A DNA stretch of 64,000 bases from a virus: positions 47,991 to 111,990 of the IMG/VR virus record IMGVR_UViG_3300044680_000048. The stretch is one strand, 5' to 3'. This document shows positions 1-64,000 of this stretch, piece by piece. A program made the position numbers and the translations under genes. Positions within the stretch are counted from its first letter, which is position 1; every line of letters starts with the position of its first letter. The notes beneath the pieces were generated by a model. The model worked only from the letters and a program-made list of their open reading frames with translations, was not told where the DNA came from and searched no databases.

Positions 1-119
1 AAGACGTTAAGAAACATATTCAAAAGCATGGTGGGAAAGTAGAAATTTACTGCTAATGGGTAGTACTCTTCCCATTAAGCCCCGTTTTAAGAGTTAATGG
101 GTACACATTAACAGAAAAA

Positions 120-135
120 CCTCCCTCAGGGGAGG
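120..135 (-). terminator. candidate hairpin terminator (minus-strand sense)
   Basis: Inverted repeat CCTCCC/GGGAGG with a TCAG loop. The A-run before it on the + strand becomes a T-run after the hairpin on the minus strand. Weak call, because no minus-strand gene is evident upstream of it. Confidence 0.3.
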
Positions 136-440
136 CTACTACTAATGTTATTTTAGTATCTGCGGCAGTCTTACGACTACCCACCACCAACTTTCGTCGA
201 TGGGGCCTAAGAGCAAGTCTTAGGGTGGATTTCCTTCTACGTTATTCCGGCTAGTTACTTAAAACTCTCCATCGGTATACCCCAAGGGACCAAGAATAAC
301 GGCTTATGAAGGAAGTTAAATGAAGAAGGGGTTCGAACCTTTAGTTTCCCTTAAAGAAACTCCTTAATCATTTAATTACTCTTCCGGCAAGATTTTACTT
401 GCATCTTCCTCTGTACAATCGAGGGCTTTAATTAAGCGAC

Positions 441-452
441 GGAAGTTAGATT
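441..452 (+). promoter_or_regulatory. copy of GGAAGT-TAnAWT promoter-like motif
   Basis: GGAAGTTAGATT. The same core occurs at 658-669 and 32516-32527, and a weaker copy GGAAGTTAAATG at 311-322. Confidence 0.3.
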
Positions 453-653
453 GTCTTCCACGGTGGTCACGATCATTACCTACCCTGAAGACTTTGTAGG
501 TTATCAACCTACAACTTAAAGTTGATTTCCGAAATAAGAACGTCATATCAACTTAATAGCTAGATATTTTAGTACTACTATTTAGCTATCTTGGGGGGAA
601 GAAGTACGCAGAATTCTGTTCCCTCTTCCTTGTATATTTATTTTACCATACCT

Positions 654-669
654 TTCCGGAAGTTACAAT
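654..669 (+). promoter_or_regulatory. promoter-like element TTCCGGAAGTTACAAT
   Basis: A TTCCGGAA palindrome abuts a -10-like TACAAT about 30 nt upstream of the ATG at 701. An AGGAG SD lies at 690-694. Confidence 0.4.
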
Positions 670-700
670 CTCAAAAGTGTTAAATTTTTAGGAGAAGAAG

Positions 701-1081
701 ATGAAACGACCGGAAGGTTACTTTGGAAAACTACTAACAGTAGATTTTCTAGGTATAAGATCTGAACTCCTAGTAGATAAAGAGTTAATGGCTGAGGTTT
801 CCCGTCAAGTTATTAGTCTTGCGGCAATGACCATAATACAAGGTCCAGACATTTTCTATTATGAGCACCCAACAGACCCATTAGAGAGTGGACTTACCGG
901 ATGTACTATCCTCTCAGAAAGTCACTTCACATTTCACTCGTTCCAGAGAAGCGGGTTCCTAACCCTAGATCTGTATAGCTGTTCAGATTTTATTCCGGAA
1001 ACAATTATAAGTTACCTAAAGGGTGTATTTAACCCAACTTCAATGGAAACTAATGTTCACCTTAGAGGGAAGGGATACTAG
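701..1081 (+). CDS. speD: S-adenosylmethionine decarboxylase-like pyruvoyl enzyme (small class 1 SpeD/SpeH family)
   Basis: 126 aa. LSESHFTFHS matches the E-S-H self-cleavage motif (compare ESHxxxHTWPE), and LDLYSC matches the DxxTCG region. Good SD upstream. Confidence 0.75.
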   Translation: MKRPEGYFGKLLTVDFLGIRSELLVDKELMAEVSRQVISLAAMTIIQGPDIFYYEHPTDPLESGLTGCTILSESHFTFHSFQRSGFLTLDLYSCSDFIPETIISYLKGVFNPTSMETNVHLRGKGY

Positions 1082-3565: not shown

Positions 3566-3777
3566 AGATTGAAAGATACGAGAACTATTATGGAGAGCAA
3601 GAGCTAACTTTCTGGTTTGGTAATAATTATTTCATGTTTGACTCCAAGGGTAACTTTGAATTCTTAGCTGCAGGTTATGGTAGTGGTTATGAAGTTGTTC
3701 CAGATATAACTAAACGGGACACACTTAGCAAAGAAGAACGGGAAATCCTTATTAAATTCCTTCAGGAGATTGAATGA
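3562..3777 (+). CDS. hypothetical protein (71 aa)
   Basis: Overlapping start/stop junctions with both neighbours. Confidence 0.5.
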   Translation: MKIERYENYYGEQELTFWFGNNYFMFDSKGNFEFLAAGYGSGYEVVPDITKRDTLSKEEREILIKFLQEIE

Positions 3778-4256
3778 AAGGACAGAAGCAAGTATTCTCT
3801 AGTACATATCAAAATTGGGAGACTCCTAAACCTTTATTTAATAGGTTACATGAAAGATTTAATTTTACTATAGATCTTGCCGCAAGCCCTGATAACCATC
3901 TATTACCTAGATTCTATACAGAAGAAGATAATTCCCTAATTCAATCTTGGGTAGATGAACGGGGGTTCACTAACCCTCCTTATAATATAGCTCCAGAATT
4001 CATTGAAAAGTCCTATATGGAAGTAGCTTATGGGTGTATGGAGTTGAATCTTTTATTGGTTCCGGCAAGAACTAGTAACAAAGAGTGGGAAGAATTTGTA
4101 TTCCCTCATGCGGAGGAGTTGATTTTTATCAATGGACGTGTTAAGTTTGGTAATAGTCCAACCGGTGCTCCTTTTCCTTCTGTTTGTATACTCTTCCGGG
4201 AAGACAATTGCGGGAAAGGTCCTAAAGTCAGTTGGATATCAGTAAGAGGTGAATAA
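3774..4256 (+). CDS. DNA N6-adenine methyltransferase (phage Dam-type)
   Basis: 160 aa. The motif order WETP...FNFTIDLAAS...N...FYTEEDNSL..W...FTNPPYN...LLVPARTSN.W...NGRVKF is typical of the phage Dam (PF05869-like) family, with an NPPY catalytic motif. Confidence 0.85.
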   Translation: MKGQKQVFSSTYQNWETPKPLFNRLHERFNFTIDLAASPDNHLLPRFYTEEDNSLIQSWVDERGFTNPPYNIAPEFIEKSYMEVAYGCMELNLLLVPARTSNKEWEEFVFPHAEELIFINGRVKFGNSPTGAPFPSVCILFREDNCGKGPKVSWISVRGE

Positions 4257-8213: not shown

Positions 8214-8292
8214 AGTAGGGTAGGGGAGTCTGGTCGTCCCCGCAAGGCTCATAACCTTGAGATCGTGAGTTCAAATCTCACCCTTGCAACCA
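8214..8292 (+). tRNA. tRNA with CAU anticodon (Met; Ile2 or initiator not excluded)
   Basis: Hand-folded cloverleaf:
- Acceptor: AGTAGGG/CCTTGCA, with an A1-A72 mismatch and two G-U pairs.
- D arm: GGGG/CCCC.
- Anticodon arm: CAAGG-CTCATAA-CCTTG.
- Variable loop: AGATC.
- T arm: GTGAG-TTCAAAT-CTCAC.
- 3' end: A plus an encoded CCA. Confidence 0.75.
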
Positions 8293-10507: not shown

Positions 10508-13500
10508 TTACTCCGCATCCATAAAGACTGACTTTGTAGCTATGTTGACAGCCGTTGTGCTTAGTGTGGTGATCGTCTCGACATTGCACGCAACACCTGA
10601 TATCGGGACATCTGTCGTTGTAGACGCAGCTAGTACTGACGCACCGCCGTTAGTACTGATGTAGAAACTTACTGTGCCAGGTATAGAGCAATCAACCGCC
10701 ATTGTGTATACGGTGTTGTAATTTATTGGGACCGTCGTAGTGATCACGTTTTGCGCTGAGCCTGTGCCAGTTACACAACGCCAGTACTGAGTAGCATCTA
10801 CTGCGGGCGAGTAGCGAAATGCGGCCACGCTAACTGCGGTCCCAGGTGTATTCGTTCCTGTGCAATATGCAGCACCACCGCCTAGCATCCCCACCCAGAT
10901 CCGGCAATTCTGAATGTCTGTAGAACTTGATCCGGTCCTAATAGTCGCTATATATCTCGGTCCTGGGTACGTATTATTGAATACTCCCCAGTTTGCATTT
11001 GCTTGCGAAGAGCTACCGGCGTAGGTGCCCGAGGTAGTTGAAGTAGCAAAGTTGACTGCGAAATCTAATCCAGCAGTACCCCACAGCGTCGTAGCAGTGC
11101 CCGAATTTGTGGGACTAACTGTGTTCAAACCTCCCGAAAAATATACAGAAGTCGTTGCGACTGCTGGATAACTATAGGTTCCCCATCGCCGCGGACGAGC
11201 GCAGGTGATTGACGGGAACATATAACTATTAACCCACGCACCCGTCCCAGATCCAGTATTTTGAATTGTCTGCCCGATGTTGCCACCGGATGGTAAGCCG
11301 CCTCCACCTCCACCAGAGGCTGTAGAGGCAATAGTTATTGTGCTATTAGTAGAATTAAGAGTTAATGTAGTATTGGACCCGGCAACTAATGCATTAGTTA
11401 AAGCTGAGTATATATCAGTAGCTACAGGTGCTCTAAAAGTAGGCTTGTTTGCAGCTCCTGTTGTAGGTCCAAATAACCCTGTTCCTGAAGCTTGATTAAT
11501 TAGAGAAAGTTGAAGAGTTCCGTTAGCTGTAAGAGGAGAATTTGTTGCTGGAGAGGTAAAAATTACATTATCTGTAGTTAATCCAACAGAGGTTAAAGCC
11601 CCAGAAGCATAATTACTTAAGGTTATAGAATTAGCCGCATTACTAACTGTAATTCCTACACCAGTTATATTAGCCGGACTATAAGATCCTCCAGAAGTAG
11701 ATCCTATAGGTATTTGACCATCTGTAGGGACAGTAGAAACTCCAGTTCCACCTGAGTAGACACTGGCTATCTGAGGCTTGATAGTTCTCCAACCACTAAT
11801 TCCATCACTTATAACGCCCATGACTTGGAATTTCAGCATGGTTTTGGATGTAGAACCGCCATCAAAGGTATCGGTTCCATTAGTAGTTACAGTACAAGCA
11901 TTAGTCCCAGTAACAGTATTATTATTAAAATAAAATACTTCTGCTACAACACTTGAAGCAGCCGGGAGAATCAAGGTTACAGGAGCAGTTGAGGCATCCA
12001 TATTCTGGTAGCCCGGAGAAGTATTGGTTAAAGTTGCACTAACTGTAGCTGAAGCGAATCCTTGGAATAAATTAACATAAGCCGGGAGTCCATTAACTAC
12101 TCCTATTGCTTGAGAAGTTAAACCAACTCCTAAAGCAGACTCTACATTGGCATTTGTGAAGTAAGGAATATCTCCCATAGTTCCTACTGCCGAAAGATTA
12201 ATCTGTGGAGTTGAAGTTGAATTGGTTACATTAACTGCAATTGAAGGAATAGAACTACTGGCAGATACAGAACTTACTGTGCCGGAACCTCCTCCTGAAG
12301 CAGTAGAGGCAATAGTAATAACACTTCCATTATTAGTTAGAGTAATATTATTTCCGGCAGCTAGGGCTCCAGTAAGATCACTACCCGTAAGGTTCCTAAA
12401 TGTAGGAGCTGCATTACCACCACTTGCTGGACCGGCAAAGATAAGTCCTGAGGCTTGATTTACAAAAGTTCCTGTTAAAGTTCCAGAATTTATAACAGGA
12501 GAGCCTGAAACAGTAAATATGGTATTAGGGAGACTTAATGCTACAGAGGTAACTGTCCCATTGGTATTTGAGCTTCCGGCATTAGAAATAATGTTTAAAG
12601 TATTTCCATTGTTTGTTAATGAAAGGTTACTTCCACTAACTGTAATTGCATTAGTTAGGTCACTTCCTACTATATTGCGATAAATTGGAGAATTTGGACT
12701 TCCAGAAGCTGGACCACTTAAGAAAGTACCAGAGGCTGCACTTGATAGATTAAAACTTAAAGTTGGCGTAGTATTTGAAGTGCTAACTGATGTTGTAAAA
12801 ATTGGATTGGCAGTGCCCGCTGAAAAAGAAGTTACTGTCCCACTAGTATTAGAAGAACCAGCAGCGCTGATAATAACATTAGAACCATTGTTATTGACTG
12901 TAACATTAGTTCCGGCTTGAATAATTGATCCTAAATCATATCCAACTAAATTCCTGTAAGAAGGACTTCCCACAGCCCCACTTGCAGGTCCAGATAAAAT
13001 TTGACCAGAAGCTGTATTGGATAGACTAAAACTTAAAACTGGAGTAGTAGTTGAATTAGCAACTGAAGTTGTGAACACGGGATTAGCCGAACCAGCCGAA
13101 AAGTTTGTAACGGTTCCTGAACTAGAGCCACTTCCAGCTACTGCTGAAATAGTTAGAACTCCTCCACTATTATTAAAGTTTATATTAGCCCCAGCAGCAA
13201 GACTTCCAATTAAATCATTACTATTTAATGTCCTATAAGTAGGAGCAGTAGAACTACCTGAAGTTGGACCAGCTAAAAAGGTTGCCGAAGCTGCATTGGA
13301 AATAGTATAAGAAATGGAAGGTGCAGTAGTAGGGTTAGAAACCGCACTTGTAAATATAGGAGCTAGGTTTCCAGAAGAGACAGAAGTGACTGAACCATTC
13401 CCGCTCGATGTTGAAGATATTATTATATTTCCATCGGAATTTCCAATGTTTATATTACTTCCAGCAGTTAAGCTATTAGGAACCCAACCTGTGGCAGATC

Positions 13501-14848
13501 CTATTAACAGTTGTCCAGGACTATTACCTTGAGGAAGATCTGTTAAGACCATTGCTCGAAAATTAGGAGTTCCAGAAGTGGAACTTGGTGAAGCAAATAT
13601 CTGTCCAGAAGATTGTGAAGATAAGGTGTGAGAAATTACGGGAGTAGTAGTAGGGTTAGTTGTACTAGAAGTAAACAGTCCGGTAAGTCCTGAGTCACTT
13701 ACGGAAGTTACTGAACCTGAAGCATTATTAGTAGCAGTAATTGTTATCTGAGAACCATTATTGCTTAAACTGATCCCAGAACCATTATTGAAGTTTCCGA
13801 AAATATCATTACTGATAATTCCCCGATAACTTGGGGCTCCAGCAGTGCCAGAAGCAGGTCCGGCAAGAAATTGTCCTGAGGCTTGATTTGTTAGAGAAAA
13901 AGTAGTACTAGGTGTTGTAGTTGAAGTAGCTGTGGTGGAAGTAAAGATAGGAGAAAGGTTGCCAACAGCGACACTTGTTACTGACCCACTAGCTAAACCA
14001 GTTGCGGAAATAGTTCCACCAGAAGATATGTTTATATTACTTCCAGCAGTTAAAGTAGGAACTACATCAGAAGCTGTTAATGGTCTAAATCCAGGAGTGG
14101 CATTTCCACCAGAGATTGGTCCAGCATACACCTGCCCTGAAGCTTGACTAGTAACAGTAAAGGTTAAATTAGGTGTGCTGGTGGGTGTAGCTACGGATGT
14201 AGTAAAAAGCCCACCAGCATTTCCAGAAGTGAAACTACTTACTGTTCCACTACCACCAGAAGAGGCAATGACTAGGCTACTTCCCACTAAGGTTAGAGTA
14301 ATATTTGAACCCGCAGAGAGGGCAGAAATTAAATCTGAACCAACATGTAATCTATAGTATGGAGTTGCCGCAGACCCTGTTACAGGTCCTGCTAAAAACT
14401 GACCAGAAGGAGCAGAAGATAAGAGAAAACTTAATGCTGGTGTGGAAGTGGGATTGGAAACTGAAGTGGTGAATATAGGATTTGCTATTCCAGCCGAAAA
14501 GTTTGTTACTGTTCCTAATCCAGCTCCAGAAGACCCAATAGTTAATGTATTGGTCCCAGCAGTTAGAGAGATTCCGGCACCTGCTACTAACTTGAAAGAA
14601 TTAGGAAGGTTGGACGTTTCATTAGCTTGAGTTACATAGGTGCCGGAAGGATAACCTCCACCAGCAGCCGAGACTGTTAAATTTCCACCTGAGAAGGTTA
14701 ACGTGATATTACTTCCGGCAGCAATAACACTTGCTCCGGTAAGAGTAGAGTTAGAAGAAGTTAATAGATAAGGAGCATTCGTAGGCGCTCCACCAGAGCT
14801 TCCTCCGGTAGATGAACTAAAGAATATTGGGGGAAAGAAAAACTTCAC
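10508..14848 (-). CDS. tail fibre / receptor-binding protein with about 10 internal repeats
   Basis: 1446 aa, rich in Gly/Ser/Thr/Asn, with a GTG start 1 nt after the upstream stop. The repeat unit is about 90-100 aa: G(T/S)VT(S/N).S.G...P(I/V)FT(T/S)....TTP...(F/L)..(Q/A)ASG..(L/F)(A/S)GP.SG....P.(Y/F)R.L...D(L/I). A distinct 262-aa C-terminal domain follows a Gly6 linker. Confidence 0.8.
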   Translation of the reverse strand: MKFFFPPIFFSSSTGGSSGGAPTNAPYLLTSSNSTLTGASVIAAGSNITLTFSGGNLTVSAAGGGYPSGTYVTQANETSNLPNSFKLVAGAGISLTAGTNTLTIGSSGAGLGTVTNFSAGIANPIFTTSVSNPTSTPALSFLLSSAPSGQFLAGPVTGSAATPYYRLHVGSDLISALSAGSNITLTLVGSSLVIASSGGSGTVSSFTSGNAGGLFTTSVATPTSTPNLTFTVTSQASGQVYAGPISGGNATPGFRPLTASDVVPTLTAGSNINISSGGTISATGLASGSVTSVAVGNLSPIFTSTTATSTTTPSTTFSLTNQASGQFLAGPASGTAGAPSYRGIISNDIFGNFNNGSGISLSNNGSQITITATNNASGSVTSVSDSGLTGLFTSSTTNPTTTPVISHTLSSQSSGQIFASPSSTSGTPNFRAMVLTDLPQGNSPGQLLIGSATGWVPNSLTAGSNINIGNSDGNIIISSTSSGNGSVTSVSSGNLAPIFTSAVSNPTTAPSISYTISNAASATFLAGPTSGSSTAPTYRTLNSNDLIGSLAAGANINFNNSGGVLTISAVAGSGSSSGTVTNFSAGSANPVFTTSVANSTTTPVLSFSLSNTASGQILSGPASGAVGSPSYRNLVGYDLGSIIQAGTNVTVNNNGSNVIISAAGSSNTSGTVTSFSAGTANPIFTTSVSTSNTTPTLSFNLSSAASGTFLSGPASGSPNSPIYRNIVGSDLTNAITVSGSNLSLTNNGNTLNIISNAGSSNTNGTVTSVALSLPNTIFTVSGSPVINSGTLTGTFVNQASGLIFAGPASGGNAAPTFRNLTGSDLTGALAAGNNITLTNNGSVITIASTASGGGSGTVSSVSASSSIPSIAVNVTNSTSTPQINLSAVGTMGDIPYFTNANVESALGVGLTSQAIGVVNGLPAYVNLFQGFASATVSATLTNTSPGYQNMDASTAPVTLILPAASSVVAEVFYFNNNTVTGTNACTVTTNGTDTFDGGSTSKTMLKFQVMGVISDGISGWRTIKPQIASVYSGGTGVSTVPTDGQIPIGSTSGGSYSPANITGVGITVSNAANSITLSNYASGALTSVGLTTDNVIFTSPATNSPLTANGTLQLSLINQASGTGLFGPTTGAANKPTFRAPVATDIYSALTNALVAGSNTTLTLNSTNSTITIASTASGGGGGGLPSGGNIGQTIQNTGSGTGAWVNSYMFPSITCARPRRWGTYSYPAVATTSVYFSGGLNTVSPTNSGTATTLWGTAGLDFAVNFATSTTSGTYAGSSSQANANWGVFNNTYPGPRYIATIRTGSSSTDIQNCRIWVGMLGGGAAYCTGTNTPGTAVSVAAFRYSPAVDATQYWRCVTGTGSAQNVITTTVPINYNTVYTMAVDCSIPGTVSFYISTNGGASVLAASTTTDVPISGVACNVETITTLSTTAVNIATKSVFMDAE
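11297..14521 (-). repeat. array of about 10 degenerate ~280-nt coding repeats inside the fibre gene
   Basis: Periodic protein repeats were read from the translation. The repeats also generate a family of similar spurious + strand ORFs (for example 12222, 13017, 13314, 13932, 14175 and 14442). Confidence 0.8.
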
Positions 14849-17658: not shown

Positions 17659-20583
17659 TTACCAGAGACGGAAGCCCAGTCCACCTAAGAACTCCTTAAA
17701 GGATTGATTTTCCTTTCGGTCTATCTCATCTTGGATTTGTTGTTGAGCGGATCTTTGATGGCGGGAAGATTCTGTTTCATGTCCTTCATTAGTTCCCATT
17801 TGAGGAGTTTTATCTTTTCTTTCCGGCACATCCTTATATATAGTTTCTATTTCACCAGAAGGTTTTTGTTCAACTGAAACTTTATCTACAATAACAAGAC
17901 CGGCGGAATCCTTCATATCCTTCAATATATTATATTGATGGTAGATGACATAGGAGAGAGCATCAGTAGGGTGAGTCATACAGTAAATTCTGTCTCTGCG
18001 GGTAGCCCGCTTAGCATTAGCATCCCCATTAGGGTCCAGTTGATCCCTGAGGGATTTATCCTTCCACTTAAGTTCTTCCAGAGATTTAATAGTATTTTCA
18101 CAATTGGGGGAGATTAGAAGAAATCCATCCTCACATGCGTGGTTCATGGTATCCGTTCTTTCTTTAATGGGCATAGTATTGGTATCTGTGACCATTTCAC
18201 AGAAGAAACCATTACCTTCAAGGATTCTAATAATCTGTGCCGGACGAGTAAGTTCACGGGAAGTCTGTCCTCCCCATCCATGAGGATCACAGAAGATGAA
18301 AACTGTCTGACCTAAATAGTCTGGCTTATATCTCCGGACAAATTCATTAGCTACGTCTACAACATTAGCTCCCCCATATGGATTATCCATAGTAGGACCA
18401 AACATTACTATTTCATCTTTAACGGTAAATTTTCCATCTTCATATTGTCCAATGATAGAGCATTGAGGTTTAAGGTTAAAATCTAAAGCCCAGAAGTAAT
18501 CCTTGGTGGGATCAATATCCGATTTTTCTTCTAAAACATTACCTAGAAGGGTGAATTTATTGTATACATAATCGTCCCGGATATCCATGTTGGTCTTACC
18601 CTGAACATAGATTTTAAACATAGTCTCATCATAGGTATCTAACATTCCCTGAAAGTAGTCTGCGGGAAGATGTTTATTATGCATTGACTCGGATTTGATT
18701 ACCCGAGTATATTGTTGATCTCCGGGACAGAAGAATCTTTCTCCTTTCCACGTCCAATAGTCCTTAGAAGACTTACAGCTGGGACACTTGTAATCTAATC
18801 CATCCTTTTCCCAAGTAACCCTTTTCTGATAGGAAAGAAGACATTTAATACAAATCTGACATTGACAAGGTTTTCCTACTGATATTTCTACGGGGTGTTC
18901 AGAAGTGTCAACTCCATCGAAGCGTTTAAATTCAAACTCTTGATTCATCCAACCGTCACGGGTTTTTTCTGGATTTGTACAAAGAATAATCTGCCTAACT
19001 TCTGGAATATTTAAACGCAGACGGGAAAGCAAAGTATAATAAGAGTCCGCATTAGGTAGAAGGTGAGGTTCTTCTACTCCAATGATTCCTGCGTTAGCTC
19101 CAACTATTTTAATGAAATTAGTTAAATTGACTAAAGTTAAATCCGAACCATTTGCAAATCTTAAATTATTCTGTTGATCCGAGAGTCTATTAAGGATTGC
19201 CGGATGATCCCATTCCTCATCAATAGTGAACATTGTCTTAAGGGTGGGTATCAGGTTTCTTTTCAATAGAGGAGCATCCATCCCGCCAATGATAGATTTA
19301 CATCCAGGATTGCTACAAAGTGCATCGACGATGCAAGCGTCCATTCCAAAACTGTTATGAACAACAGTGAAGTCATCTAGAAGAAAAAGAGAATCTCCAT
19401 CAACAGTAAATCCATAATAGTTACCCACGCCTAGTTTTTTAATAGTAACCCCAGTAACTAAAGGATCTTTCTTTAATGGGGAAAACCTAATCTTTTTTCT
19501 TTCAATTTTCGTAGGTATTCTATAAACATCTCCATAAATACAAACTTCATAACAAGTATGTACTGCTCCAGTAGAGATATTACCAGAAGCCCTTTTTTCT
19601 ACTCTGTCTCTTTTACGAAAGGTAACTCCCAGTCCTAAACTTTTTGCAAGAAACTCAATTTGTTTGGCAATTAATTCATTTTTTTGAGTTATTGTAAAAG
19701 AAGCTTTACCACCTTTATCATTTTTAGAGACTGTTCCATCACTATCTATTAAGCCAGCCAAAAACTGTAATCTATCACTTTCGGAACTTGTTAGGTAATC
19801 ATGAGGTATGTGTTTATTATTTAAAACATTAAGTTCTCTTAAGTTATTTAAAAAAGTATTACACCCTTTGGACCTTGAATTAATAGAAGTGGTTGAATAA
19901 TGTAAATTGTCGCCATGATCTGTTAGTTTTAATCCTAATTTTAAGGCATACTCTTCAAAATAATTAACTACCTCAAAATCTGGACTGGTTATTCTAGTAT
20001 TATTAGAATTTCCATTTCCAACCCAATAGGATAATATATAAGGATCTATTAATAATTCTTTAGTGTTAGGGAAATTAATTAGGCTACTTCGATAAATCCT
20101 ATGTCTTTTTTGGTCATGTTTAGATAAGGATAAATATTCCTTTACTGATAAATTTTTTATAGTTCCATTAGGTACCTTATAAAGGTCAGTAGTTTTCAAA
20201 GAAAGAATATGGGATTCATTACAAATAAAAGATGAACCCTTATTGGGAATTACCTTGTATAACATATCCTCTCCTTTAGCTAAAGAAAGGACATTTCTAG
20301 GCTTAGAGTCAGGTCCCATTACCTGATCTCCCTCTACCACATCTTGAACCATTTTAATGGTCCCATCATACATTAATATGGGGGTATCAATCCCAAAACA
20401 CTTACCTGAACTTTTTTAGCCGAAGCCACCCACAGAAATTAATGCATCACTGGTATGCCAGTGAGGGCGTTTATTTGGCGGCATCTTCGAAATAAAGTAG
20501 CGCTTTTGTAATTCATTAGGACCAGGTTCAGCAGATTTAGAACCGGTAGTCCAGAGATTCACAGGTGGAATAGGCTTCGACAT
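17659..20583 (-). CDS. terL: terminase large subunit, interrupted by an intein and carrying an in-frame TAA in the Walker A motif
   Basis: - The hand-translated N-extein runs from the ATG at 20583 and reads ...HWHTSDALISVGGFG*KSSGK. The intein then starts with Cys (20400-20398) and the C-extein starts with Ser, giving G-x4-GKS.
- The C-extein has Walker B IIGVEE, the coupling motif CTNP, and nuclease aspartates at LDFN, FCDPHG and TDAL.
- The stop codon is at 20418-20416, in the same frame as both flanks. Confidence 0.85.
19354..20400 (-). mobile_element. intein (349 aa) with LAGLIDADG homing-endonuclease domain, inserted in the TerL P-loop
   Basis: It begins CFGIDTPILMYDG and has block B NESH. 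Two LAGLIDADG motifs are present (YILSYWVGNGNS and LQFLAGLIDSDGTV). It ends FTVVHN, followed by the +1 Ser. Confidence 0.85.
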
Positions 20584-24661: not shown

Positions 24662-24847
24662 TTACGCATCTTGCGTTACGCTTAAAACGTAATTACATTT
24701 CTCACACTGACAAGTTCTCGTACCCTTCAATAATTTTATATTGACACAGCAGGAAGAACACAGTTGACAATCTACTGCTTTAGTTCCACCACAGCACTTG
24801 TTGCCGGAATCTTCTTCATGACACTCATGACACCACCATTCAGTCAT
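24662..24847 (-). CDS. hypothetical Cys-rich protein (61 aa, 11 Cys)
   Basis: CHEC...CC...CQLCSSCC...CQCEKC. Its start overlaps the stop of the PTH2 remnant. Confidence 0.45.
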   Translation of the reverse strand: MTEWWCHECHEEDSGNKCCGGTKAVDCQLCSSCCVNIKLLKGTRTCQCEKCNYVLSVTQDA

Positions 24848-32527: not shown

Positions 32528-32604
32528 AAGATTACAAAGTTAGACAATTTATTTGCTTTTGAGCCAAGACTGCATTGGCTCTTAGCTTTTCATGGGGTAT
32601 TTTA

Positions 32605-34341: not shown

Positions 34342-34344
34342 TAG

Positions 34345-39415: not shown

Positions 39416-40437
39416 CCTACTATGTCGGAAAACCTAATGTCTGTAATCCGGAAGGGATGATAGAGTACGTTTATAAAGTACTCCGTTCCGGAAAACTTAC
39501 TAATAACGGGGAACAAGTAGAAGCTTTTGAATACGAATTTGCTAATAAGCATAAGTTTAAATATGCAGTAGCGGTATCCAATGCTACAGTAGGATTACAA
39601 TTATGCCTTTCCGGATACCCTAATGGAAGAATAGGACTTCCAGCATTTAGCTTTATAGCCACATTAAATGCAGTTAAGAATAGCAAACTTCTGCCAGACT
39701 TCTATGATGTAGATGAGAACATGGCTATTAACAATTCTGAATCTAGATTGACTTTGCCAGTAAACCTATTCGGGTCCTGTGTTCCCGAAAAGTTTAACGG
39801 GAAGAATGTAGCTGTATATGATTCAGCCCATTGTACTGGAATGGATGTAACTCACCTTAAGGGTGCTCCTCATGTATTCTCCCTTCATGCAACTAAATTA
39901 GTAAATAGTTGTGAGGGAGGGATGATCTGTACTGATAATAAATTCTTAGCTGATTATTTAAAGGCTGCTAGAAACTTCGGATTTGACCCCAATTCTGAAG
40001 CTCCGGAAGGGGAAATTCTGGATATAGATGGCGGAACTAATGCCAAAATGAGTGAAGTTCATGCGGCAATAGGAAGATTTAATCTTGCCTCAGTAGGGGA
40101 AATCATTGAATATAATAAGCAAATCTTCAAATGGTATGAAGAATTCTTACCGGAAGTTAATTTATTCATCCCACCGGAAAGTTCAAATTTTAGCTACATA
40201 GTAATGAATTTTCAGCCAGAGGTGCGGGAAAGACTTTACACCTCTCTAAGAGTAATGGGAGTAATGGTTCGTAAATACTTCGCCTACACACTTCCAAAAG
40301 TAGCTAAGATTAAGGGGGATTTCCCCATGGCGGAAAGATTCTCCCAAACTAATCTAGCTTTTCCTACGGGAATGGAACTAAAACGGGAAGACATAGAACA
40401 CATATGTAAACTTACTAGAGGATTTATAAATGATTAA
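39412..40437 (+). CDS. DegT/DnrJ/EryC1-type sugar aminotransferase (PLP-dependent)
   Basis: 341 aa. FEYEFA, VSNATVGLQL and the PLP-lysine region FSLHATKLVNSCEGGMI. Confidence 0.85.
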   Translation: MTYYVGKPNVCNPEGMIEYVYKVLRSGKLTNNGEQVEAFEYEFANKHKFKYAVAVSNATVGLQLCLSGYPNGRIGLPAFSFIATLNAVKNSKLLPDFYDVDENMAINNSESRLTLPVNLFGSCVPEKFNGKNVAVYDSAHCTGMDVTHLKGAPHVFSLHATKLVNSCEGGMICTDNKFLADYLKAARNFGFDPNSEAPEGEILDIDGGTNAKMSEVHAAIGRFNLASVGEIIEYNKQIFKWYEEFLPEVNLFIPPESSNFSYIVMNFQPEVRERLYTSLRVMGVMVRKYFAYTLPKVAKIKGDFPMAERFSQTNLAFPTGMELKREDIEHICKLTRGFIND

Positions 40438-55547: not shown

Positions 55548-56243
55548 ATGCCTAGAAAACCCTTTGAGGACTTAACCGGAAGCACTTGTGGAAGATACCA
55601 AGTAATCTGTCTAGACCATGTAGGTCCTAACTTCCATTATAATTTTAAATGTCTTTGTAATCTTTGCGGAAAAGAAGTTGTACAAAACCGCACTAGAATA
55701 GTAAAGGATTTGGGACACTTTAATTGCCTTCCCATTGAGAAAAAGACCAAACATGGGGATAGTAGAAGAAATGAGTTTGGCGGGAAGACCATTCTCTACT
55801 CTAGATGGTCTGCACTGGTTGCTAGAACTACTAAGACTTATCTTGATTGTTCAGTTAATTACATTGAACGGGGGATAGATATTACAGAAAAGTGGACTGG
55901 TGGTGGAGAAGGTTATCTAAACTTCAAAAACTGGGCTTACGGGAAATACCCTAATTTAGATGAACTTCTAGAACAGGGGTATGAACTCGACCGGGAAGAT
56001 AACGATAAAGGGTATTCCGAAGAAAATTGTAGGTTTGTATCCCACAAGACTAATATGAGAAACCAGAGAATAACAAAAAAAGTTGAATGGAAGGGTCAGC
56101 TTCTACCTATCGGAGACATTATAGAGCAGGAAAATTGTCCTTATTCTTATGGTGTGGTGTCCGGCAGACTTAAATTAGGATGGAGTATGGTTGATACCTT
56201 AACAGTTCCGTACACTCCTGGGAAAAGAGGCTGGAGAAAATGA
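55548..56243 (+). CDS. free-standing HNH homing endonuclease-like protein
   Basis: 231 aa. N-terminal Zn module, then ELDREDNDKGYSEENCRFVSHKTNMRNQR, which is typical of the phage HNH C-terminal core. Confidence 0.7.
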   Translation: MPRKPFEDLTGSTCGRYQVICLDHVGPNFHYNFKCLCNLCGKEVVQNRTRIVKDLGHFNCLPIEKKTKHGDSRRNEFGGKTILYSRWSALVARTTKTYLDCSVNYIERGIDITEKWTGGGEGYLNFKNWAYGKYPNLDELLEQGYELDREDNDKGYSEENCRFVSHKTNMRNQRITKKVEWKGQLLPIGDIIEQENCPYSYGVVSGRLKLGWSMVDTLTVPYTPGKRGWRK

Positions 56244-57526
56244 AAACATTAATTTTTCTAAGTGACCAAGCGGGACCTGCACAACTTACGGCTATTAATC
56301 CTCACAAGTGGTTAATGGCTTATGGAGTAGAGACGGATTATGAGTGTATTCTTCCCTCAGACAGTGGAGTTCCAGGAAGCTCCTTCAATGCCCTAGTTAA
56401 GCAAATTGCCAGGTATGATTTAATTGCAGTTCAACGTGTAACTCAATTAGATATCATGAAGATGATAAGGTCTGCATGTGACCTATTAGGTAAACCTCTT
56501 CTACTTATTTTAGATGACAATTACGTACATCTAGAAAGACACAACCCTTGTCATTTTAGTACCGCCCTTGGTGGCACAATACAAATGTACCGGCAGCTTC
56601 AGATGGAAGGAAAGAATGAAGAGGCTAATGCCCTCATTCCTCTTCTAGAAATGGAAAGAGTTAAGGGACAACAAGAACTTAAGGAAGCTTGGGCACTGCC
56701 CGATCATGTTATTGTGACTACTGATGAACTAGCTGATGTAGTACGTCCCTATAATAGAAATATTTCCGTCTTCTGTAATAACATGGAAAGAGTTCATTGG
56801 GAAACGGACCTCAGTATTGAAGAAGCCGGTCCCGATGGAATGCTTAAGGGAACTTCTAATACATTTGGGCTAGGTACTATTCCCTCTTACTATGCCGATA
56901 ATGAAGGTAAACTACAAAAAGTAGTACGTGTGGGGTATACAGGAACTTCTACCCACCAAGAAGACTATAAGACCATTGAGTCATCCTTAAATAAAGTATT
57001 GGATAAGTACCACGGGAAGATTTGGATGGTGTATATTGGAGATCCTTGGTTCTTTCAAAGACGGATGGACCATTGTTATAAAGCAGGTTTAGGGGCACAA
57101 AAGAGAACACACTTTATTCCCGCAACACCTTTTGATACTTACCAATTGAATGTCCGGAATATTGATATAGGACTGGCTCCTTTAGAGCCTACTCCATTTA
57201 ATATGAGTAAGAGTGACCTAAAGGCACTAGAATATTCTGCGTGGTCAGCTTGTTCAATTTTACCACATTATGTAACCTACAGTAGAGCCTTTGTCCATAA
57301 GGAGACAGCCCTACTTTACCGGAATTCAGAAGAATTTGAAAAATACCTAGAAGAATTAATTAATAATGAAAGACTCCGGAAGAAATTAGGGAATAACGCC
57401 CGTAATTATATAGCTAATAACAGATTAGAGAAACACCACAGTCTCAGGAGATATGAATTGTATAAATCATTGATTGCCACAAGCCCTGGATTGAAAATCT
57501 TCCAGCCAGAGGCAGTAGCAGTATGA
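56240..57526 (+). CDS. GT-B-fold glycosyltransferase (GT1/GT4-like)
   Basis: 428 aa. The C-terminal region KALEYSAW....LPHYV.......VHKETALLYRNSEEFEKYLEELINNERLRKKLGNNARNYI resembles the GT4 nucleotide-sugar binding half. Confidence 0.65.
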   Translation: MKTLIFLSDQAGPAQLTAINPHKWLMAYGVETDYECILPSDSGVPGSSFNALVKQIARYDLIAVQRVTQLDIMKMIRSACDLLGKPLLLILDDNYVHLERHNPCHFSTALGGTIQMYRQLQMEGKNEEANALIPLLEMERVKGQQELKEAWALPDHVIVTTDELADVVRPYNRNISVFCNNMERVHWETDLSIEEAGPDGMLKGTSNTFGLGTIPSYYADNEGKLQKVVRVGYTGTSTHQEDYKTIESSLNKVLDKYHGKIWMVYIGDPWFFQRRMDHCYKAGLGAQKRTHFIPATPFDTYQLNVRNIDIGLAPLEPTPFNMSKSDLKALEYSAWSACSILPHYVTYSRAFVHKETALLYRNSEEFEKYLEELINNERLRKKLGNNARNYIANNRLEKHHSLRRYELYKSLIATSPGLKIFQPEAVAV

Positions 57527-57810: not shown

Positions 57811-58100
57811 ACCTCCAAGAAATACTAGATGAGCTTCCGCCGGAACAAAGAAAAAGAATTAGAGATAGAGCAGTAGAGTTGCTGATATCAGACCTCTTTC
57901 CCTTTCAAGAATACAAGCTTGAAAACGACTATTTTATTAAATGGGATGTGAGAGTTTTTGAATCAGGTAATAATAAGATTCCCTTTATATATGGTGGACG
58001 GGGTTGTGATATGGAATCCATCCGTCTAGTTTCTAGGGTAGATAAGTTCATAAAAGATGGAAATAGTATACCAGAGGTAGACAATGCAGACAAAGATTAA
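57807..58100 (+). CDS. hypothetical protein (97 aa)
   Basis: ATGA overlap with the upstream gene. Confidence 0.45.
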   Translation: MNLQEILDELPPEQRKRIRDRAVELLISDLFPFQEYKLENDYFIKWDVRVFESGNNKIPFIYGGRGCDMESIRLVSRVDKFIKDGNSIPEVDNADKD

Positions 58101-58674
58101 ACCAGCAACTCTTAAGCCCGCTATTAAGGGATTTGTAGTAGGGAGACGCCGGAAAAGACCTGATATGACTACTGGAGGTATAGCTCTTCCGGATACCTAT
58201 CTTACCGGTCAAGATGGCATTACTAATACAGAATACAGATTAGTAGAAGTACTTTCCGTTCCATCTGATTTAAAAAAGACAGTTAAGGTAAGCGGGTTCA
58301 TACTAGCACATGAGTTGGACTGTGTACCTTTTGCTTTGAGTGCAGAGGAGTATGAATTACAATCTATTCCCTGGAGCCAAGTTTATGCTTACGGGAAAAC
58401 TGTAGAAACCCTCAAGCCCCTTAGGGATGTAGTATTCATTAAGGAAGATGAACAAAAAGAAGAAGTAACTTCCGGTGGGCTTATTCTTCCCTCTTTCGCC
58501 AGAGGCATTGATAAATTTGGCACAGTAATGAAGCAAACGGGACCAGAAGTTAAAGAATTAAAGGGTGGAGATAGAGTTTTTTGGCTCAAAGGATATGGCT
58601 TAAATTTTAGTTCCGGAGAGTCCAAATTCTTGGCTATTTCTGAGAAAGATATCGTGGCTACGGTGGGAGAATAA
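58084..58674 (+). CDS. tandem (duplicated) GroES/Cpn10-like co-chaperonin
   Basis: 196 aa with two GroES-like halves.
- First half: LKPAIKGFVVGRRRKRPDMTTGGIALPDT...VKVSGFIL.
- Second half: LKPLRDVVFIKEDEQKEEVTSGGLILPS...GTVMKQTGP...LKGGDRVFW. Confidence 0.6.
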   Translation: MQTKIKPATLKPAIKGFVVGRRRKRPDMTTGGIALPDTYLTGQDGITNTEYRLVEVLSVPSDLKKTVKVSGFILAHELDCVPFALSAEEYELQSIPWSQVYAYGKTVETLKPLRDVVFIKEDEQKEEVTSGGLILPSFARGIDKFGTVMKQTGPEVKELKGGDRVFWLKGYGLNFSSGESKFLAISEKDIVATVGE

Positions 58675-61405: not shown

Positions 61406-61414
61406 TGGTATGAT
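61406..61414 (+). promoter_or_regulatory. extended -10 promoter TGgTATGAT, 6 nt from the SNF2 helicase ATG
   Basis: TATGAT at 61409-61414 is followed by tatact and then the ATG at 61421. There is no SD. Confidence 0.45.
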
Positions 61415-61420
61415 TATACT

Positions 61421-63199
61421 ATGATTAAGGCTAGTTTTAGTGGAAAAAACATTAAACTTGAGTGGGAATTAATCTCTGAAAAGAAGCGTATAGAGAAGCT
61501 CAAGAACAGAATTCCCCGCTATGAAATTGACGTAGATGGAGATAGTATACTATCTTCTTATGAGTTCCCGCAAGCCTCTATTAGAGACATATTAGAAGCT
61601 TTTGATGTAGTGCCGGACCCTAAAATCCAAAAACTTATAGACCAGTATCTCATAGAATCTACTCCTATGGACAAGATGGAACCGGAAGAGTTAGATATGT
61701 CGATGTTCCATCTTCCTCCCAAAGAGTACCAACTTAAACTTCTGCAAGTCAATAGGCTGAAGAGAAATATCATCTTAAATATGGGAATAGGTAGTGGTAA
61801 GAGCTACTCCAGTCTCTACCGTTGTAGAATCCTTGCCGGAAACAACACTTTTAAACTATTGGTTATTGCCCCAAAGAATCTTGTAGTTAAGACAGACCAG
61901 TGGAAGAATGAAGTTAAGAAATGTCTTGGGCGGGAAGCTTTAGTTTTCTGGGCTGTTGGAAGTAAGAAGCGGGAAGAACTCCTTAAGAAGGTCAAAGACT
62001 TTGATATTATCCTTACCACATATGACCAAGCCGGTTATCTTACTGGGTTTAAGCCGGACTACATTATCATAGATGAGGGACACCTTATCCGGAAAGAGGG
62101 TTCTAAGAAGCACAAAGCTACCAAGAAACATGTAACTTCTAATCCTAATGCCGGAAAACTCATACTTACCGGAAGCCCCAAGCCTAACAAGTTAGAGAAC
62201 TTATGGGTCCTACTAAATCTTATAGCTCCTACTATTGCCGGAAGCAAGAAGAGCTTCCTCAATAAGTACCAAAAGCCTACTAGGTTCATGAATATCCGGA
62301 AAGTCCTTCCCTCTGGTATAGTTACTACCTTCAGAGTGGCAACGGCGTTTAAGGACATAAACCTAGATGAATTATACACACATATTTCACCAGTAGTTTA
62401 TACTGTTCCCAAATCAGACATTATTAACTTTGAGGACACTCTAGACTTCATTGACTTAGAAATGACACCTAAGCAGAAGAAAGTCTATTATCAACTGGCT
62501 AATGAGCTTCTGGAGAAGAAGAGAGATGGAACCATTCGATATGAAGACGCCCTTCAATATACTCTTAGATTAAATCAAGTTGCGGAAGGTTTATTCAATC
62601 TTCCGGATCTCAACTCTTTGGACTCTAACCACCTAGATTATATAGTATCCATAATTGAAGAGTTAGATGAAGATGAGAAACTTATAATATGGAGCCGGTT
62701 CCAACCTATAACAAACATACTGTATAATAGGTTTAAGGAAAGATCTGTTCTATTTAATGGTACTGTATCTCCGGCAAGAACTAAACTAGGAATTATGGCT
62801 TTTGGGGGAATAACTTCTGAAGAAGAGTACAAACAGTATGAAGAACTGGCTTACCGGCAAAAAGATTGGAGACTTAAGCCTGGAGAAGCCCAATTGTTCT
62901 TAGGAGTAATGCACGAGGTCTCTTCTATTGGAGTAGACAGCTTGCAGAAAGGTTGTTCTTATCAAATAGTAAGTGCTCAATCAGACCTTCTAGCCACAGA
63001 CCATCAGGCAATAGGGAGAATTAGCAGATTAGGTCAATTATCAAGTGAAGTAAGAACAGATTACCTATTTAGCCGGAATAGCCTAGAAAGAACTAAATAC
63101 GAGAACAAATTAGCAGTTTATAAGTCAGGAGTCCATGCCCTAGAGTCTAAACACAGTTCAACTTATGCCCTGATTAAAGAAATAGAAGGAGCCTTATAG
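61421..63199 (+). CDS. SNF2-family helicase/translocase
   Basis: 592 aa. MGIGSGKS (I), IIIDEGH (II), LILTGSPKPNKLENLW (III) and QAIGRISRLGQ (VI). Confidence 0.88.
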   Translation: MIKASFSGKNIKLEWELISEKKRIEKLKNRIPRYEIDVDGDSILSSYEFPQASIRDILEAFDVVPDPKIQKLIDQYLIESTPMDKMEPEELDMSMFHLPPKEYQLKLLQVNRLKRNIILNMGIGSGKSYSSLYRCRILAGNNTFKLLVIAPKNLVVKTDQWKNEVKKCLGREALVFWAVGSKKREELLKKVKDFDIILTTYDQAGYLTGFKPDYIIIDEGHLIRKEGSKKHKATKKHVTSNPNAGKLILTGSPKPNKLENLWVLLNLIAPTIAGSKKSFLNKYQKPTRFMNIRKVLPSGIVTTFRVATAFKDINLDELYTHISPVVYTVPKSDIINFEDTLDFIDLEMTPKQKKVYYQLANELLEKKRDGTIRYEDALQYTLRLNQVAEGLFNLPDLNSLDSNHLDYIVSIIEELDEDEKLIIWSRFQPITNILYNRFKERSVLFNGTVSPARTKLGIMAFGGITSEEEYKQYEELAYRQKDWRLKPGEAQLFLGVMHEVSSIGVDSLQKGCSYQIVSAQSDLLATDHQAIGRISRLGQLSSEVRTDYLFSRNSLERTKYENKLAVYKSGVHALESKHSSTYALIKEIEGAL

Positions 63200-63200
63200 A

Positions 63201-63839
63201 GTGACAATTTGTGGAATGATAAAGGTCCGGAAACCTTCTGGAGAACTAATTATCCTTGCCGGAAGTGACTCTGAGGTTTCTACTACAAGCCACCGGCTAC
63301 ATAGTATAGAAAACAAGAACAAATTACTAAAGATAAAGGATTCTATTATCGCTGTTTCTGGTGGTGGAAGTATCTCTGAAGCTGTAGAGGACTTGCTGGA
63401 AGATAAAAACTTTCTTGACTCTATTGACCTATGTACCAAAAAGGGTGTAAGATTACTAGGTGAGCAAATTTATGAGCTATTCAAGCTCATGGCGGAAAGA
63501 TCTCCTATTCCAGATATAGCTTCTTCTGCTGGAGATCTCCTTATAGCTACTCCCAATAACATATATAAGATGTTTCCAGATTTAGCTATTTACAGTTTTG
63601 ATGATTTCTGTAGTTCTGGAATAGGAGAAGAGAGCTTTAATGGAGCTATGACCATTTTACTAGAAGACTTAAAGAGTGATCCGGAAATAACTAATAGAAA
63701 AGTAGAAATGGTGATGACTAGGGCTATTGACACTGCTTGTACTCATGTATTACACTGTAATCCTCCGATTCACTTAGCTTATCCAGATTCTTCTTGTACG
63801 CCGATAAGACCTAAAACAAGGAAAAAGAGAAATGGCTAA
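63201..63839 (+). CDS. HslV/proteasome beta-like Ntn hydrolase
   Basis: 212 aa. The GTG start is followed by Thr (MTICGMIKVRKPSGELIILAGSDSE...KLLKIKDSIIAVSGGGSISEA...CSSGIGEESFNGAM...AIDTACTHVLHCN). This is collinear with HslV TTIVSVRRNGHVVIAGDGQ...KVIAGFAGGTADA...GSGG.YA..AA...ALDIAGDICIYTN. Confidence 0.55.
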   Translation: MTICGMIKVRKPSGELIILAGSDSEVSTTSHRLHSIENKNKLLKIKDSIIAVSGGGSISEAVEDLLEDKNFLDSIDLCTKKGVRLLGEQIYELFKLMAERSPIPDIASSAGDLLIATPNNIYKMFPDLAIYSFDDFCSSGIGEESFNGAMTILLEDLKSDPEITNRKVEMVMTRAIDTACTHVLHCNPPIHLAYPDSSCTPIRPKTRKKRNG

Positions 63840-63896
63840 GAGAGGACTTAAATTCAAAGTCTCTGAACTAAAGGAGGCTCTAGAGGAGTGGTTTTA

Positions 63897-63986
63897 ATGA
63901 ACCTTAGGGAAAGAATAGAAGAAATTATTGCCGGAATATGGATAACACTTGAGTACATATTTAAACACTTTGGAAAGAATAAATAA
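63897..63986 (+). CDS. mini-ORF (29 aa), first of a tandem duplicated pair
   Basis: MNLRERIEEIIAGIWITLEYIFKHFGKNK. The same ATGAACCTTAGGGAA start recurs at 63986, with the copy truncated by the window end. Confidence 0.3.
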   Translation: MNLRERIEEIIAGIWITLEYIFKHFGKNK

Positions 63987-64000
63987 TGAACCTTAGGGAA

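Follow-up and report, generated by a model that had tools for sequence, protein, structure and literature searches.

The window examined here is a 64,000-nucleotide stretch of viral DNA (positions 47,991 to 111,990 of IMG/VR record IMGVR_UViG_3300044680_000048), and its subject is a short CpG-containing word, CCGGAA with its reverse complement TTCCGG, that recurs along the whole of it. The source contig is 111,990 bp long, and the window has a GC content of 38.8%. A total of 96 genes were called, covering 92.5% of the sequence and leaving 4.8 kb of intergenic DNA, with a block of structural genes on the minus strand (1-26000) followed by a plus-strand block (26000-64000). By family, the capsid protein is of SU10/phiEco32 type (PF17236). 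For the DNA polymerase and terminase, the matches reach no more than 25-38% and lie in unrelated phages. Among GenBank phages, neither megablast of 20 kb nor a search with the capsid protein found a match, and searches of IMG/VR and of GTDB genomes with the capsid protein or its alignment found no relative. Relatives were found only in a large protein database; the four closest, which were used here, have capsid identities of 73%, 59%, 52% and 48%. As set out below, the excess of CCGGAA-type words in the window is real and very large, and what the window carries is a composition rule that acts genome-wide at the level of DNA rather than a discrete 8-bp element.

Exact counting over the window gives 283 CCGG (about 4.4 per kb), 172 CCGGA, 129 TCCGG and 69 TCCGGA, together with 120 CCGGAA and 70 TTCCGG (190 together) and 24 copies of the 8-bp palindrome TTCCGGAA. 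Totals in both orientations are 301 for CCGGA/TCCGG, 77 for CCGGCA/TGCCGG and 87 for CGGGAA/TTCCCG. Base composition predicts 90 CCGG and a first-order Markov model 76, and a dinucleotide model predicts 16.6 CCGGAA plus reverse complement and 0.9 TTCCGGAA. Dinucleotide shuffles contain a mean of 1.01 copies of this octamer, and none of 100 reaches 24. CpG has an observed/expected ratio of 0.50, and 24% of all CpGs fall within CCGG. The initial annotation, made by eye from the letters alone, had counted 17 CCGG in 1-3000 and 14 in 27241-30000, 27 of these 31 in the form TCCGG or CCGGA, and the exact counts agree on every figure. Its 24 positions for TTCCGGAA are likewise correct apart from one, 25318, which should read 25319.

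Since the anomaly resides in words of 3-5 bases, a large part of the excess is soaked up by higher-order Markov models. For TTCCGGAA, the expectation rises to 5.9 at second order (4.1 fold) and 9.7 at third order (2.5 fold), and a maximal-order model built from its 7-mers predicts 25.6. CCGGAA in both orientations stays 1.8 fold above the third-order expectation (190 against 105). The underlying enrichment therefore withstands such models, whereas the claim made for the 8-mer as such does not. An assembly artefact is ruled out by a second assembly of the same sequence that is 100% identical, and by a 1,954-bp contig from another metagenome that is 99.8% identical and keeps 7 of 7 CCGG sites.

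The excess acts on the DNA itself, independently of reading frame and strand. Synonymous codons were shuffled within each gene, with the amino-acid sequence and codon counts held fixed. Within the called genes, these shuffles contain 147 CCGG against 270 observed (z=13), 31 CCGGAA against 114 (z=17) and 4.8 TTCCGGAA against 22 (z=8), and total CpG rises from 1,113 to 1,527. The early view that codon usage is not responsible thus holds. So does the claim that the motif occurs in all phases, on both strands and between genes: the six strand-by-codon-phase classes of CCGGAA all show enrichment, by 3.0-6.1 fold, and the intergenic DNA holds 11 CCGGAA/TTCCGG against 1.0 expected, a ratio of about 11 fold that equals the genome-wide ratio against composition. 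The intergenic examples quoted in the initial annotation are real and lie outside the called genes. Enrichment in all three phases, on both strands and between genes indicates that the effect acts at the DNA level. In addition, sense and antisense enrichments are nearly equal in both gene blocks, at 3.2/3.1 in the minus-strand block and 3.9/3.5 in the plus-strand block.

Codon choice and, in places, residues follow the word. Of 89 Pro codons that precede GAA, 50 are CCG, against only 7% of those before a non-G base. CCG-GAA (Pro-Glu) forms the largest single class of CCGGAA, with 50 sites. Arg is encoded as CGG mainly where C precedes and AA or GA follows. In the capsid gene, 4-5 of the 9 CCGG sites fall at Gly or Pro residues found in this phage alone, the outcome that directional pressure would give, and those sites that change the amino acid lie at variable residues. 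A shift in amino-acid composition was considered and rejected, the capsid containing 12.3% Pro+Gly against 10.7-12.7% in its homologues.

The initial annotation took the 8-bp palindrome for the iterated unit, and on this point the counts go against it. If the two flanks of CCGG were independent, AA/AA pairs, which make TTCCGGAA, would number 31.9, and 24 are observed, while AA/CA pairs number 36 against 25.8. Similarly, TCCGGA occurs 69 times against about 79 from independent flanks, and CCGG itself 283 times against 255 from CCG×CGG/CG (1.11 times; 2×2 odds ratio 1.47). The two halves of CCGG therefore show mild synergy and almost no palindromic cooperativity. As TTCCGGAA is no commoner than its half-flanks predict, it is not the unit but a by-product, the statistical shadow of an asymmetric half-word.

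That unit is 5'-CGG(S)AA-3', S standing for C, G or no base at all, mostly with a C before it. The base after CCGG is A in 53% of cases and G in only 6%. Among the NCCGGN classes, enrichment is confined to those containing CCGGA (GCCGGA 3.45 fold, TCCGGA 2.9, ACCGGA 1.75); CCCGGA (1.0), ACCGGT (0.77), GCCGGC (1 against 3.2) and CCCGGG (1 against 3.9) show none. Further words enriched in both orientations are CCGGCA(A), D-CGGGAA and CGGAAG, and CGGCA occurs 112 times in the window against 25.7. CCGGAA stands at 178 against 27-79 for its non-CpG one-base neighbours, and variants one base away are moderately enriched if their CCGG core is intact. In its sharpest discrete form the word is the 9-mer TTGCCGGAA (or TTCCGGCAA), found 21 times where dinucleotide shuffles give 0.23 and Markov models of second, third and fourth order give 1.0, 2.5 and 9.7. 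These copies lie in all frames, on both strands and also between genes, and their flanks are random.

The context in which CpGs survive is equally one-sided. Retention of NCGN words relative to composition is 3.13 for CCGG, 0.98 for CCGC, 0.79 for CCGT and 0.47 for CCGA, falling to 0.17-0.31 for DCGH words and 0.04 for CGCG. These values are near the product of two one-sided preferences for a C 5' of each strand's CpG cytosine; even among CpGs without a following G, 40% still have a C before them. Surviving CpGs are concentrated where a pyrimidine run meets a purine run, as where TTCC is followed by GGAA. DCGH words are equally depleted whether palindromic or not, so that avoidance of type II restriction sites alone is insufficient as an explanation.

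Along the window, the sites are spread evenly. The spacing of CCGG is Poisson-like (coefficient of variation 0.94; Kolmogorov-Smirnov p=0.23), the variance/mean of its counts per 4 kb is 1.1, and the sites lie no closer to gene starts than random positions do. No clustering, periodicity, proximity to gene starts or strand polarity was found in the window, and there is no hint of regulatory arrays, of partition sites or of a mobile repeat. Sites spread so evenly, without polarity and at a density of about 5 per kb within genes, bear little resemblance to promoters or to partition sites. The positions of both discrete words are given in Table 1 with those of the genes discussed below.

Table 1. 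The window-wide signature, all copies of the octamer and the 9-mer, and selected genes (window coordinates)
Feature	Position	Strand	Remark
Compositional signature, genome-wide	1..64000	.	CpG observed/expected, word counts, spacing
TTCCGGAA	654..661	.	exact match; intergenic
TTCCGGAA	993..1000	.	exact match
TTCCGGAA	1159..1166	.	exact match
TTCCGGAA	4372..4379	.	exact match
TTCCGGAA	5584..5591	.	exact match; capsid gene, Pro-Glu at conserved residues
TTCCGGAA	8117..8124	.	exact match
TTCCGGAA	8986..8993	.	exact match
TTCCGGAA	17415..17422	.	exact match
TTCCGGAA	22631..22638	.	exact match
TTCCGGAA	23627..23634	.	exact match
TTCCGGAA	25319..25326	.	exact match; earlier given as 25318
TTCCGGAA	28889..28896	.	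exact match
TTCCGGAA	31036..31043	.	exact match
TTCCGGAA	32512..32519	.	exact match; intergenic
TTCCGGAA	38305..38312	.	exact match
TTCCGGAA	39486..39493	.	exact match
TTCCGGAA	41151..41158	.	exact match
TTCCGGAA	41396..41403	.	exact match
TTCCGGAA	42335..42342	.	exact match
TTCCGGAA	47615..47622	.	exact match
TTCCGGAA	48264..48271	.	exact match
TTCCGGAA	49758..49765	.	exact match
TTCCGGAA	51192..51199	.	exact match
TTCCGGAA	51820..51827	.	exact match
TTGCCGGAA	382..390	-	exact match; intergenic
TTGCCGGAA	1657..1665	+	exact match
TTGCCGGAA	3210..3218	+	exact match
TTGCCGGAA	4060..4068	-	exact match
TTGCCGGAA	4438..4446	-	exact match
TTGCCGGAA	8078..8086	-	exact match
TTGCCGGAA	9756..9764	-	exact match
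TTGCCGGAA	23842..23850	+	exact match
TTGCCGGAA	24801..24809	+	exact match; intergenic
TTGCCGGAA	31150..31158	+	exact match
TTGCCGGAA	43829..43837	-	exact match
TTGCCGGAA	43871..43879	+	exact match
TTGCCGGAA	45318..45326	+	exact match
TTGCCGGAA	53777..53785	+	exact match
TTGCCGGAA	53968..53976	-	exact match
TTGCCGGAA	55100..55108	+	exact match
TTGCCGGAA	58746..58754	-	exact match
TTGCCGGAA	61833..61841	+	exact match
TTGCCGGAA	62235..62243	+	exact match
TTGCCGGAA	63256..63264	+	exact match
TTGCCGGAA	63928..63936	+	exact match; intergenic
N6-adenine DNA methyltransferase, PF05869 Dam family	3774..4256	+	160 aa; Pfam match
Candidate replication protein	21817..24657		946 aa; no family match
Large terminase gene	17659..20373	-	904-aa open reading frame; intein-type insertion
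Repeat protein	10508..14848	-	1,446 aa; no family match
tRNA-Met (CAT)	8214..8292	+	single; between head-protein genes
Sugar-modification cluster	37138..40437, 56240..57526	+	
Auxiliary genes: speD, class I ribonucleotide reductase, Cpn10/GroES-like, PTH2-like fragment	701..1081, 32575..35307, 58084..58674, 24662..24847		

The same genome avoids restriction sites. Twelve 6-bp palindromes are absent from the window, including GGATCC (0 against 12 under a maximal-order Markov model), and GGCC, CGCG, GCGC, TCGA and GATC are under-represented. Among 4-bp palindromes CCGG alone is in excess (3.1 fold), and among those of 6 bp only TCCGGA is strongly enriched. The missing palindromes reveal strong restriction pressure on this phage. 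The window thus shows the classic avoidance of palindromes described for phages (e.g. PMC6286503), but differs in that one CpG word is in large excess where comparable marine phages purge CCGG to zero. An extreme purge is seen in the cultured Pelagibacter phage HTVC048P (L088, OR420745.1, 42.8 kb), which contains no CCGG, GCGC, CGCG, GGCC, CCGT or ACGG and one TCGA and one GATC each, where composition predicts 32-134 of each purged word; this purge takes in the non-palindromic pair CCGT/ACGG. HTVC010P, a phage of the same host strain, is without CCGG, CGCG, GGCC and CCGT and has kept GATC.

Comparison with relatives and control genomes places the word in a single lineage. CpG depletion is common to all the relatives, but CCGGAA is at expectation in four of four (73-48% capsid identity), and the saturation is therefore lineage-specific. 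When the same counts were extended to these relatives, one part of the pattern recurred: L004 is enriched in (T)CGGCA and L002 in TGCSGCA, both on both strands and in several reading frames. CGGCA being over-represented in the window as well, the clade may share the trait of a DNA-level CpG word, with the actual word varying by lineage. The idea that each relative has its own CpG word of the same kind holds for L004 and L002 and fails for L003 and the Pelagibacter phages, where enrichment is specific to frame or sense. In L003 and three cultured Pelagibacter phages, any enriched CpG word is frame-locked on the sense strand, a codon-pair effect. For example, GCGGC in HTVC048P is about 9 fold over a first-order Markov model and reads GCG-GCN in phase 0 at 49 of 51 sites, and GACGC, enriched in HTVC008M, reads GAC-GCN at 57 of 59; HTVC010P has no enriched CpG word. 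HTVC048P and HTVC008M, computed here as controls, are likewise CpG-poor marine phages with one strongly over-represented CpG word, but theirs is bound to the sense strand and one phase, whereas that of the window is independent of both. Pelagibacter host loci showed no such CpG-word excess.

Other viral sequences are further removed. Of 13 other viral contigs, 12 have CCGG at 0-0.9 fold and one has it at 1.48 fold, and none has a word near the window's z-score, making the window an outlier in strength and in kind. The one exception for CCGG, the unrelated contig L112 (Ga0265298_10001507), has no GATC, 32 GATATC against 9.1 and a mild excess of ACCGGA (18 against 2.7). A separate observation concerns L009 (NZIV01000032.1), the best 'Marinimicrobia' match of the ribonucleotide reductase gene, binned as bacterial in the 'Candidatus Neomarinimicrobiota' metagenome-assembled genome (MAG) MED589. 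It is a T7-like phage contig encoding a single-subunit RNA polymerase, a T7-type primase-helicase, DNA polymerase, portal, capsid, tail tube and nozzle; it was probably mis-binned, or may hint at a host. In L003, a peptide-chain-release-factor (RF-1 domain) protein is encoded at 11811-12242, directly after the capsid gene.

Candidate enzymes were sought in 69 kb, comprising the 64-kb window and 5 kb on its left. The PF05869 protein is the only DNA-modifying enzyme found by Pfam and PHROG scans of all window proteins. The initial annotation had named it as a possible writer of the motif; as an N6-adenine methyltransferase it cannot write the cytosines of CCGG and, from its family, could write only the A of CCGGA/A. 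Pfam detected no C5-methyltransferase, Vsr, MutH-like or deaminase-type protein among the window proteins, and none was recorded in the 5 kb to the left. L002 has a D12-class adenine methyltransferase in the corresponding neighbourhood, beside the capsid gene. The two proposed readers fared no better. The 'ParB-like' domain is a weak match to a nuclease/CTPase-type N-terminal domain (E=1e-4, 6e-3), with no DNA-reading helix-turn-helix detected, and for the proposed sigma factor the match to Sigma70_r2 is no better than E=0.07. Binding sites that are palindromic and cooperative, of the ParB/Noc type or for another dimer, were rejected given the lack of palindromic cooperativity and the uniform density of about 4-5 sites per kb. 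A likeness to the Bacillus Noc binding site, ATTTCCCGGGAAAT, was dropped, as CCCGGG occurs only once. A DNA polymerase, a RecA-like protein and a nuclease are also among the phage's own genes.

Several other genes in the window deserve mention. The large terminase gene carries an intein-type insertion, with both ends of the reading frame matching terminase families and Pfam matches to Hint (E=7e-17) and LAGLIDADG homing-endonuclease domains (E=1.6e-11, 1e-9) within it; the terminase-side gene of L003 has Hint and Hom_end matches too. The 1,446-residue protein is rich in Ser/Thr/Gly/Ala and built of many similar units of about 50-70 residues (e.g. '...SGSVTSV...FTS...TTP...SGQ..AGP.SG....P.YR...'), and is presumably a fibre or decoration protein. 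The sugar-modification cluster encodes a hexapeptide acyltransferase, a GT2 glycosyltransferase, a DegT-type aminotransferase and a glycosyltransferase-like gene, and relatives carry different sugar genes (NTP_transferase, FdtA, epimerase). The speD gene encodes an S-adenosylmethionine (AdoMet) decarboxylase. NrdB is 60% identical to that of Pelagibacter podophages, in which speD adjoins nrdA, and the closest ribonucleotide-reductase matches are marine taxa at 50-57% identity. Together, the gene content (speD, GroES-like, NrdB, sugar genes) points to a marine setting. On the plus strand, GC and AT skew are about +0.10 to +0.17 over the plus-strand block (+0.05 in the last 4 kb) and near zero, not negative, over the minus-strand structural block, which suggests a genome-wide strand asymmetry added to the coding asymmetry.

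As for the cause, a lineage-specific, strand-wise substitution or repair pressure, possibly linked to modification and set against restriction-driven purging of CpG, is tentatively preferred, although we would not give it even odds. We infer that bias in substitution or repair, and not selection for function, is the force at work. A context-dependent pressure would act on each strand separately in this one lineage. CpGs in D-CG-H contexts would disappear, or be counter-selected by the numerous restriction systems that the phage evidently evades, and a CpG with C before and G(S)AA after it would be spared and actively replenished, for instance by modification-linked or otherwise biased repair. 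By the anatomy described above, CCGG, TCCGGA, TTCCGGAA and TTGCCGGAA form where two opposite-strand words meet in one CpG, at about the frequency of independent halves. Under the proposed pressure, the word would be a by-product, a mutational or epigenetic footprint rather than a set of binding sites. The use of CCG before GAA and the height of CCGGAA above its one-base neighbours argue for a positive drive, not mere sparing.

Several observations weigh against this account. No enzyme that could impose the bias was found in the DNA scanned. The transition neighbours of the word are undrained, CTGGAA standing at 1.03 and CCAGAA at 1.34 of shuffle expectation, and the depleted ones are the transversion pair CAGGAA (0.56) and CCTGAA (0.81). 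As T:G-derived neighbours are not drained, the classical very-short-patch mechanism does not fit, and a footprint of such T:G repair was rejected for want of depletion in CTGG/CCAG-type neighbours. A positive excess of 3.5-11 fold is also large for a neutral bias. Moreover, the information is spread over 6-9 bases, with TTGCCGGAA still 2.2 fold above a fourth-order Markov model, which would also fit a sequence-specific protein. Finally, the only comparison with a close relative covers 2 kb at 99.8% identity and is uninformative on gains versus losses.

The closest known parallel is the family of highly iterated palindromes (HIPs) of cyanobacteria, with which the initial annotation had compared the motif. 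In kind, the comparison is reasonable. Alternate HIPs include rCCGGy, GCsGC and GGCGCC (Elhai 2015, PMC4390886), and one of them, rCCGGy, has the window's CCGG core. Like the window's word, HIPs are short GC-rich words with a CpG core that are hyper-abundant genome-wide, occur in all reading frames and between genes without a gene-level function, and are lineage-specific, relatives carrying replacement words. The differences are substantial. HIPs belong to cyanobacterial chromosomes, and the window's word is in a phage. Here the palindrome is not the unit and shows no excess over its halves. HIP1 (GCGATCGC) has second-order Markov observed/expected ratios of 16-317 (Xu, Lawrence & Durand 2018, PMC5861425), and the 4.1 of TTCCGGAA is below the criterion of about 16 used there for octamers, so that in strength the parallel falls short; the non-palindromic 9-mer TTGCCGGAA (21 against 1.0) does reach such a fold. 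HIPs are further marked by sites conserved between diverged genomes beyond what codons require, and by a periodic distribution at 10-90 kb; for the window, the nearest relative (73% capsid identity) lacks the word, the near-identical DNA spans 2 kb, and 64 kb is short for such a period. The flanks of CCGG in the window are K..M (T/G before, A/C after), the opposite of the r..y of alternate HIPs. We class the word of the window among hyper-abundant oligonucleotide signatures, as one that is asymmetric and belongs to a phage.

Other iterated words resemble it less. Oligonucleotide skews in Escherichia coli have been ascribed to very-short-patch (Dcm/Vsr) repair (Bhagwat & McClelland 1992, as cited in PMC4687349). 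The shared idea is that a repair bias, not a function, raises a methylation-site-like word genome-wide, but the window lacks the drain of CTGG/CCAG neighbours, and the 69 kb yielded no Vsr or Dcm-type gene. Short over-represented words not set by coding also include Chi sites and DNA uptake sequences. They are, however, strand-polar or orientation-biased and common to the host, whereas the window's word has no polarity. A literature search found no relevant paper on TTCCGGAA and no report of CCGG excess in phages.

The HIP parallel suggests a first rival explanation, in which a cytosine methyltransferase, encoded by the host or in the roughly 43 kb of the phage genome beyond the 69 kb scanned, would target CCGG or a longer site, for example TCCGGA. 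Methylation would shield CCGG from CpG-purging restriction, and a methyl-directed repair ratchet (Elhai's model) would accumulate it. In cyanobacteria, rCCGGy, GCsGC and GGCGCC are hyper-abundant only where the cognate 5-methylcytosine methyltransferase is present (PMC4390886). CCGG being the sole 4-bp palindrome in excess, its scarcity in other marine phage contigs, its complete absence from HTVC048P and the moderate enrichment of variants with the CCGG core would all fit, as would the fact that the window and L002 differ both in word and in the methyltransferase family beside the capsid gene. However, neither a C5-methyltransferase nor Vsr was found in the 69 kb, where alternate HIPs have a cognate enzyme, and the methyltransferases of the window and L002 are both adenine enzymes. 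A methylated palindrome also sits badly with the near-absence of palindromic cooperativity in CCGG, TCCGGA and TTCCGGAA, with a one-sided preference that survives without its partner and with GCCGGC and CCCGGG at or below expectation. We therefore regard this explanation as unlikely, though worth keeping in view.

Equally improbable, but deserving the same attention, is a functional asymmetric word. Some phage enzyme in need of numerous sites on each strand would read CCGGAA/CGG(S)AA in single-strand fashion, and selection would keep up the density in a genome otherwise emptied of CpG. Candidates are a primase, an enzyme of recombination or nicking, and the PF05869 methyltransferase writing A. 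Priming sites behave as asymmetric, graded words, as with the GTC of T7 and its preferred pentamers, and the word of the window is indeed asymmetric, equal in both orientations and graded in its flanks. The CGGCA-sharing words of L004 and L002 would fit a clade-wide protein with drifting specificity, and the excess of the 9-mer over a second-order model also speaks for a specific reader. Against this, nothing ties the word to any protein, the candidate replication protein has no family match, about 5 sites per kb is far beyond priming needs, and the sites show no clustering, polarity or positional preference.

There is a further reading, which we consider somewhat less probable again. The word would be the target of a strand-specific modifying or processing enzyme borne by the phage, such as the PF05869 protein writing CCGGA(A) or an enzyme encoded beyond the 69 kb scanned, and would have built up to saturation in this one lineage by a modification-coupled repair ratchet. 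Sister lineages would have swapped enzymes and ratcheted up TCGGCA (L004) and TGCSGCA (L002) instead.

About as doubtful is the explanation that the signature belongs to the host. The host would have the same CpG-context rule, towards which the phage would have drifted through host replication and repair, or been favoured for matching. Phages commonly resemble their hosts in oligonucleotide usage, and a word that differs among related phages is what different hosts would produce. However, none of 80 bacterial or MAG loci recovered via ribonucleotide reductase carries the signature (maximum 3.4 against 11 fold, at 48-56% GC), and the phage's own polymerase, RecA-like protein and nuclease also count against this explanation.

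Least of all, a codon-pair or translational effect, a Chi-like polar recombination signal or a dispersed mini-repeat would be very hard to credit: the size of the Pro-Glu class and the frame-locked CpG words of control phages such as HTVC048P and HTVC008M recommend the first, but it is refuted by the like enrichment of three phases, both orientations and intergenic DNA, as is the second by equal enrichment on both strands in both gene blocks without polarity, and the third, whether as repeat or mobile element, by the random flanks of TTGCCGGAA, Poisson-like spacing, the lack of clusters and the location of most copies within genes.

Hyper-abundant words like HIP1 have been known for 30 years without an agreed origin or function. 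Here, a comparable saturation, frame-independent, strand-symmetric and at about 5 sites per kb, is found in a small phage genome. For motif searches, it carries the caution that an eye-catching palindrome can be cast by a half-word that is not palindromic at all. If a modification or repair enzyme is responsible, this phage would be far more tractable than a cyanobacterial chromosome for studying how such words originate. If the word is functional, it would point to an unrecognised sequence requirement in phage DNA metabolism. Should a ratchet driven by a phage-borne enzyme prove true, a HIP-like process would have been caught in a phage, and whether such words are by-product or function would become open to experiment.

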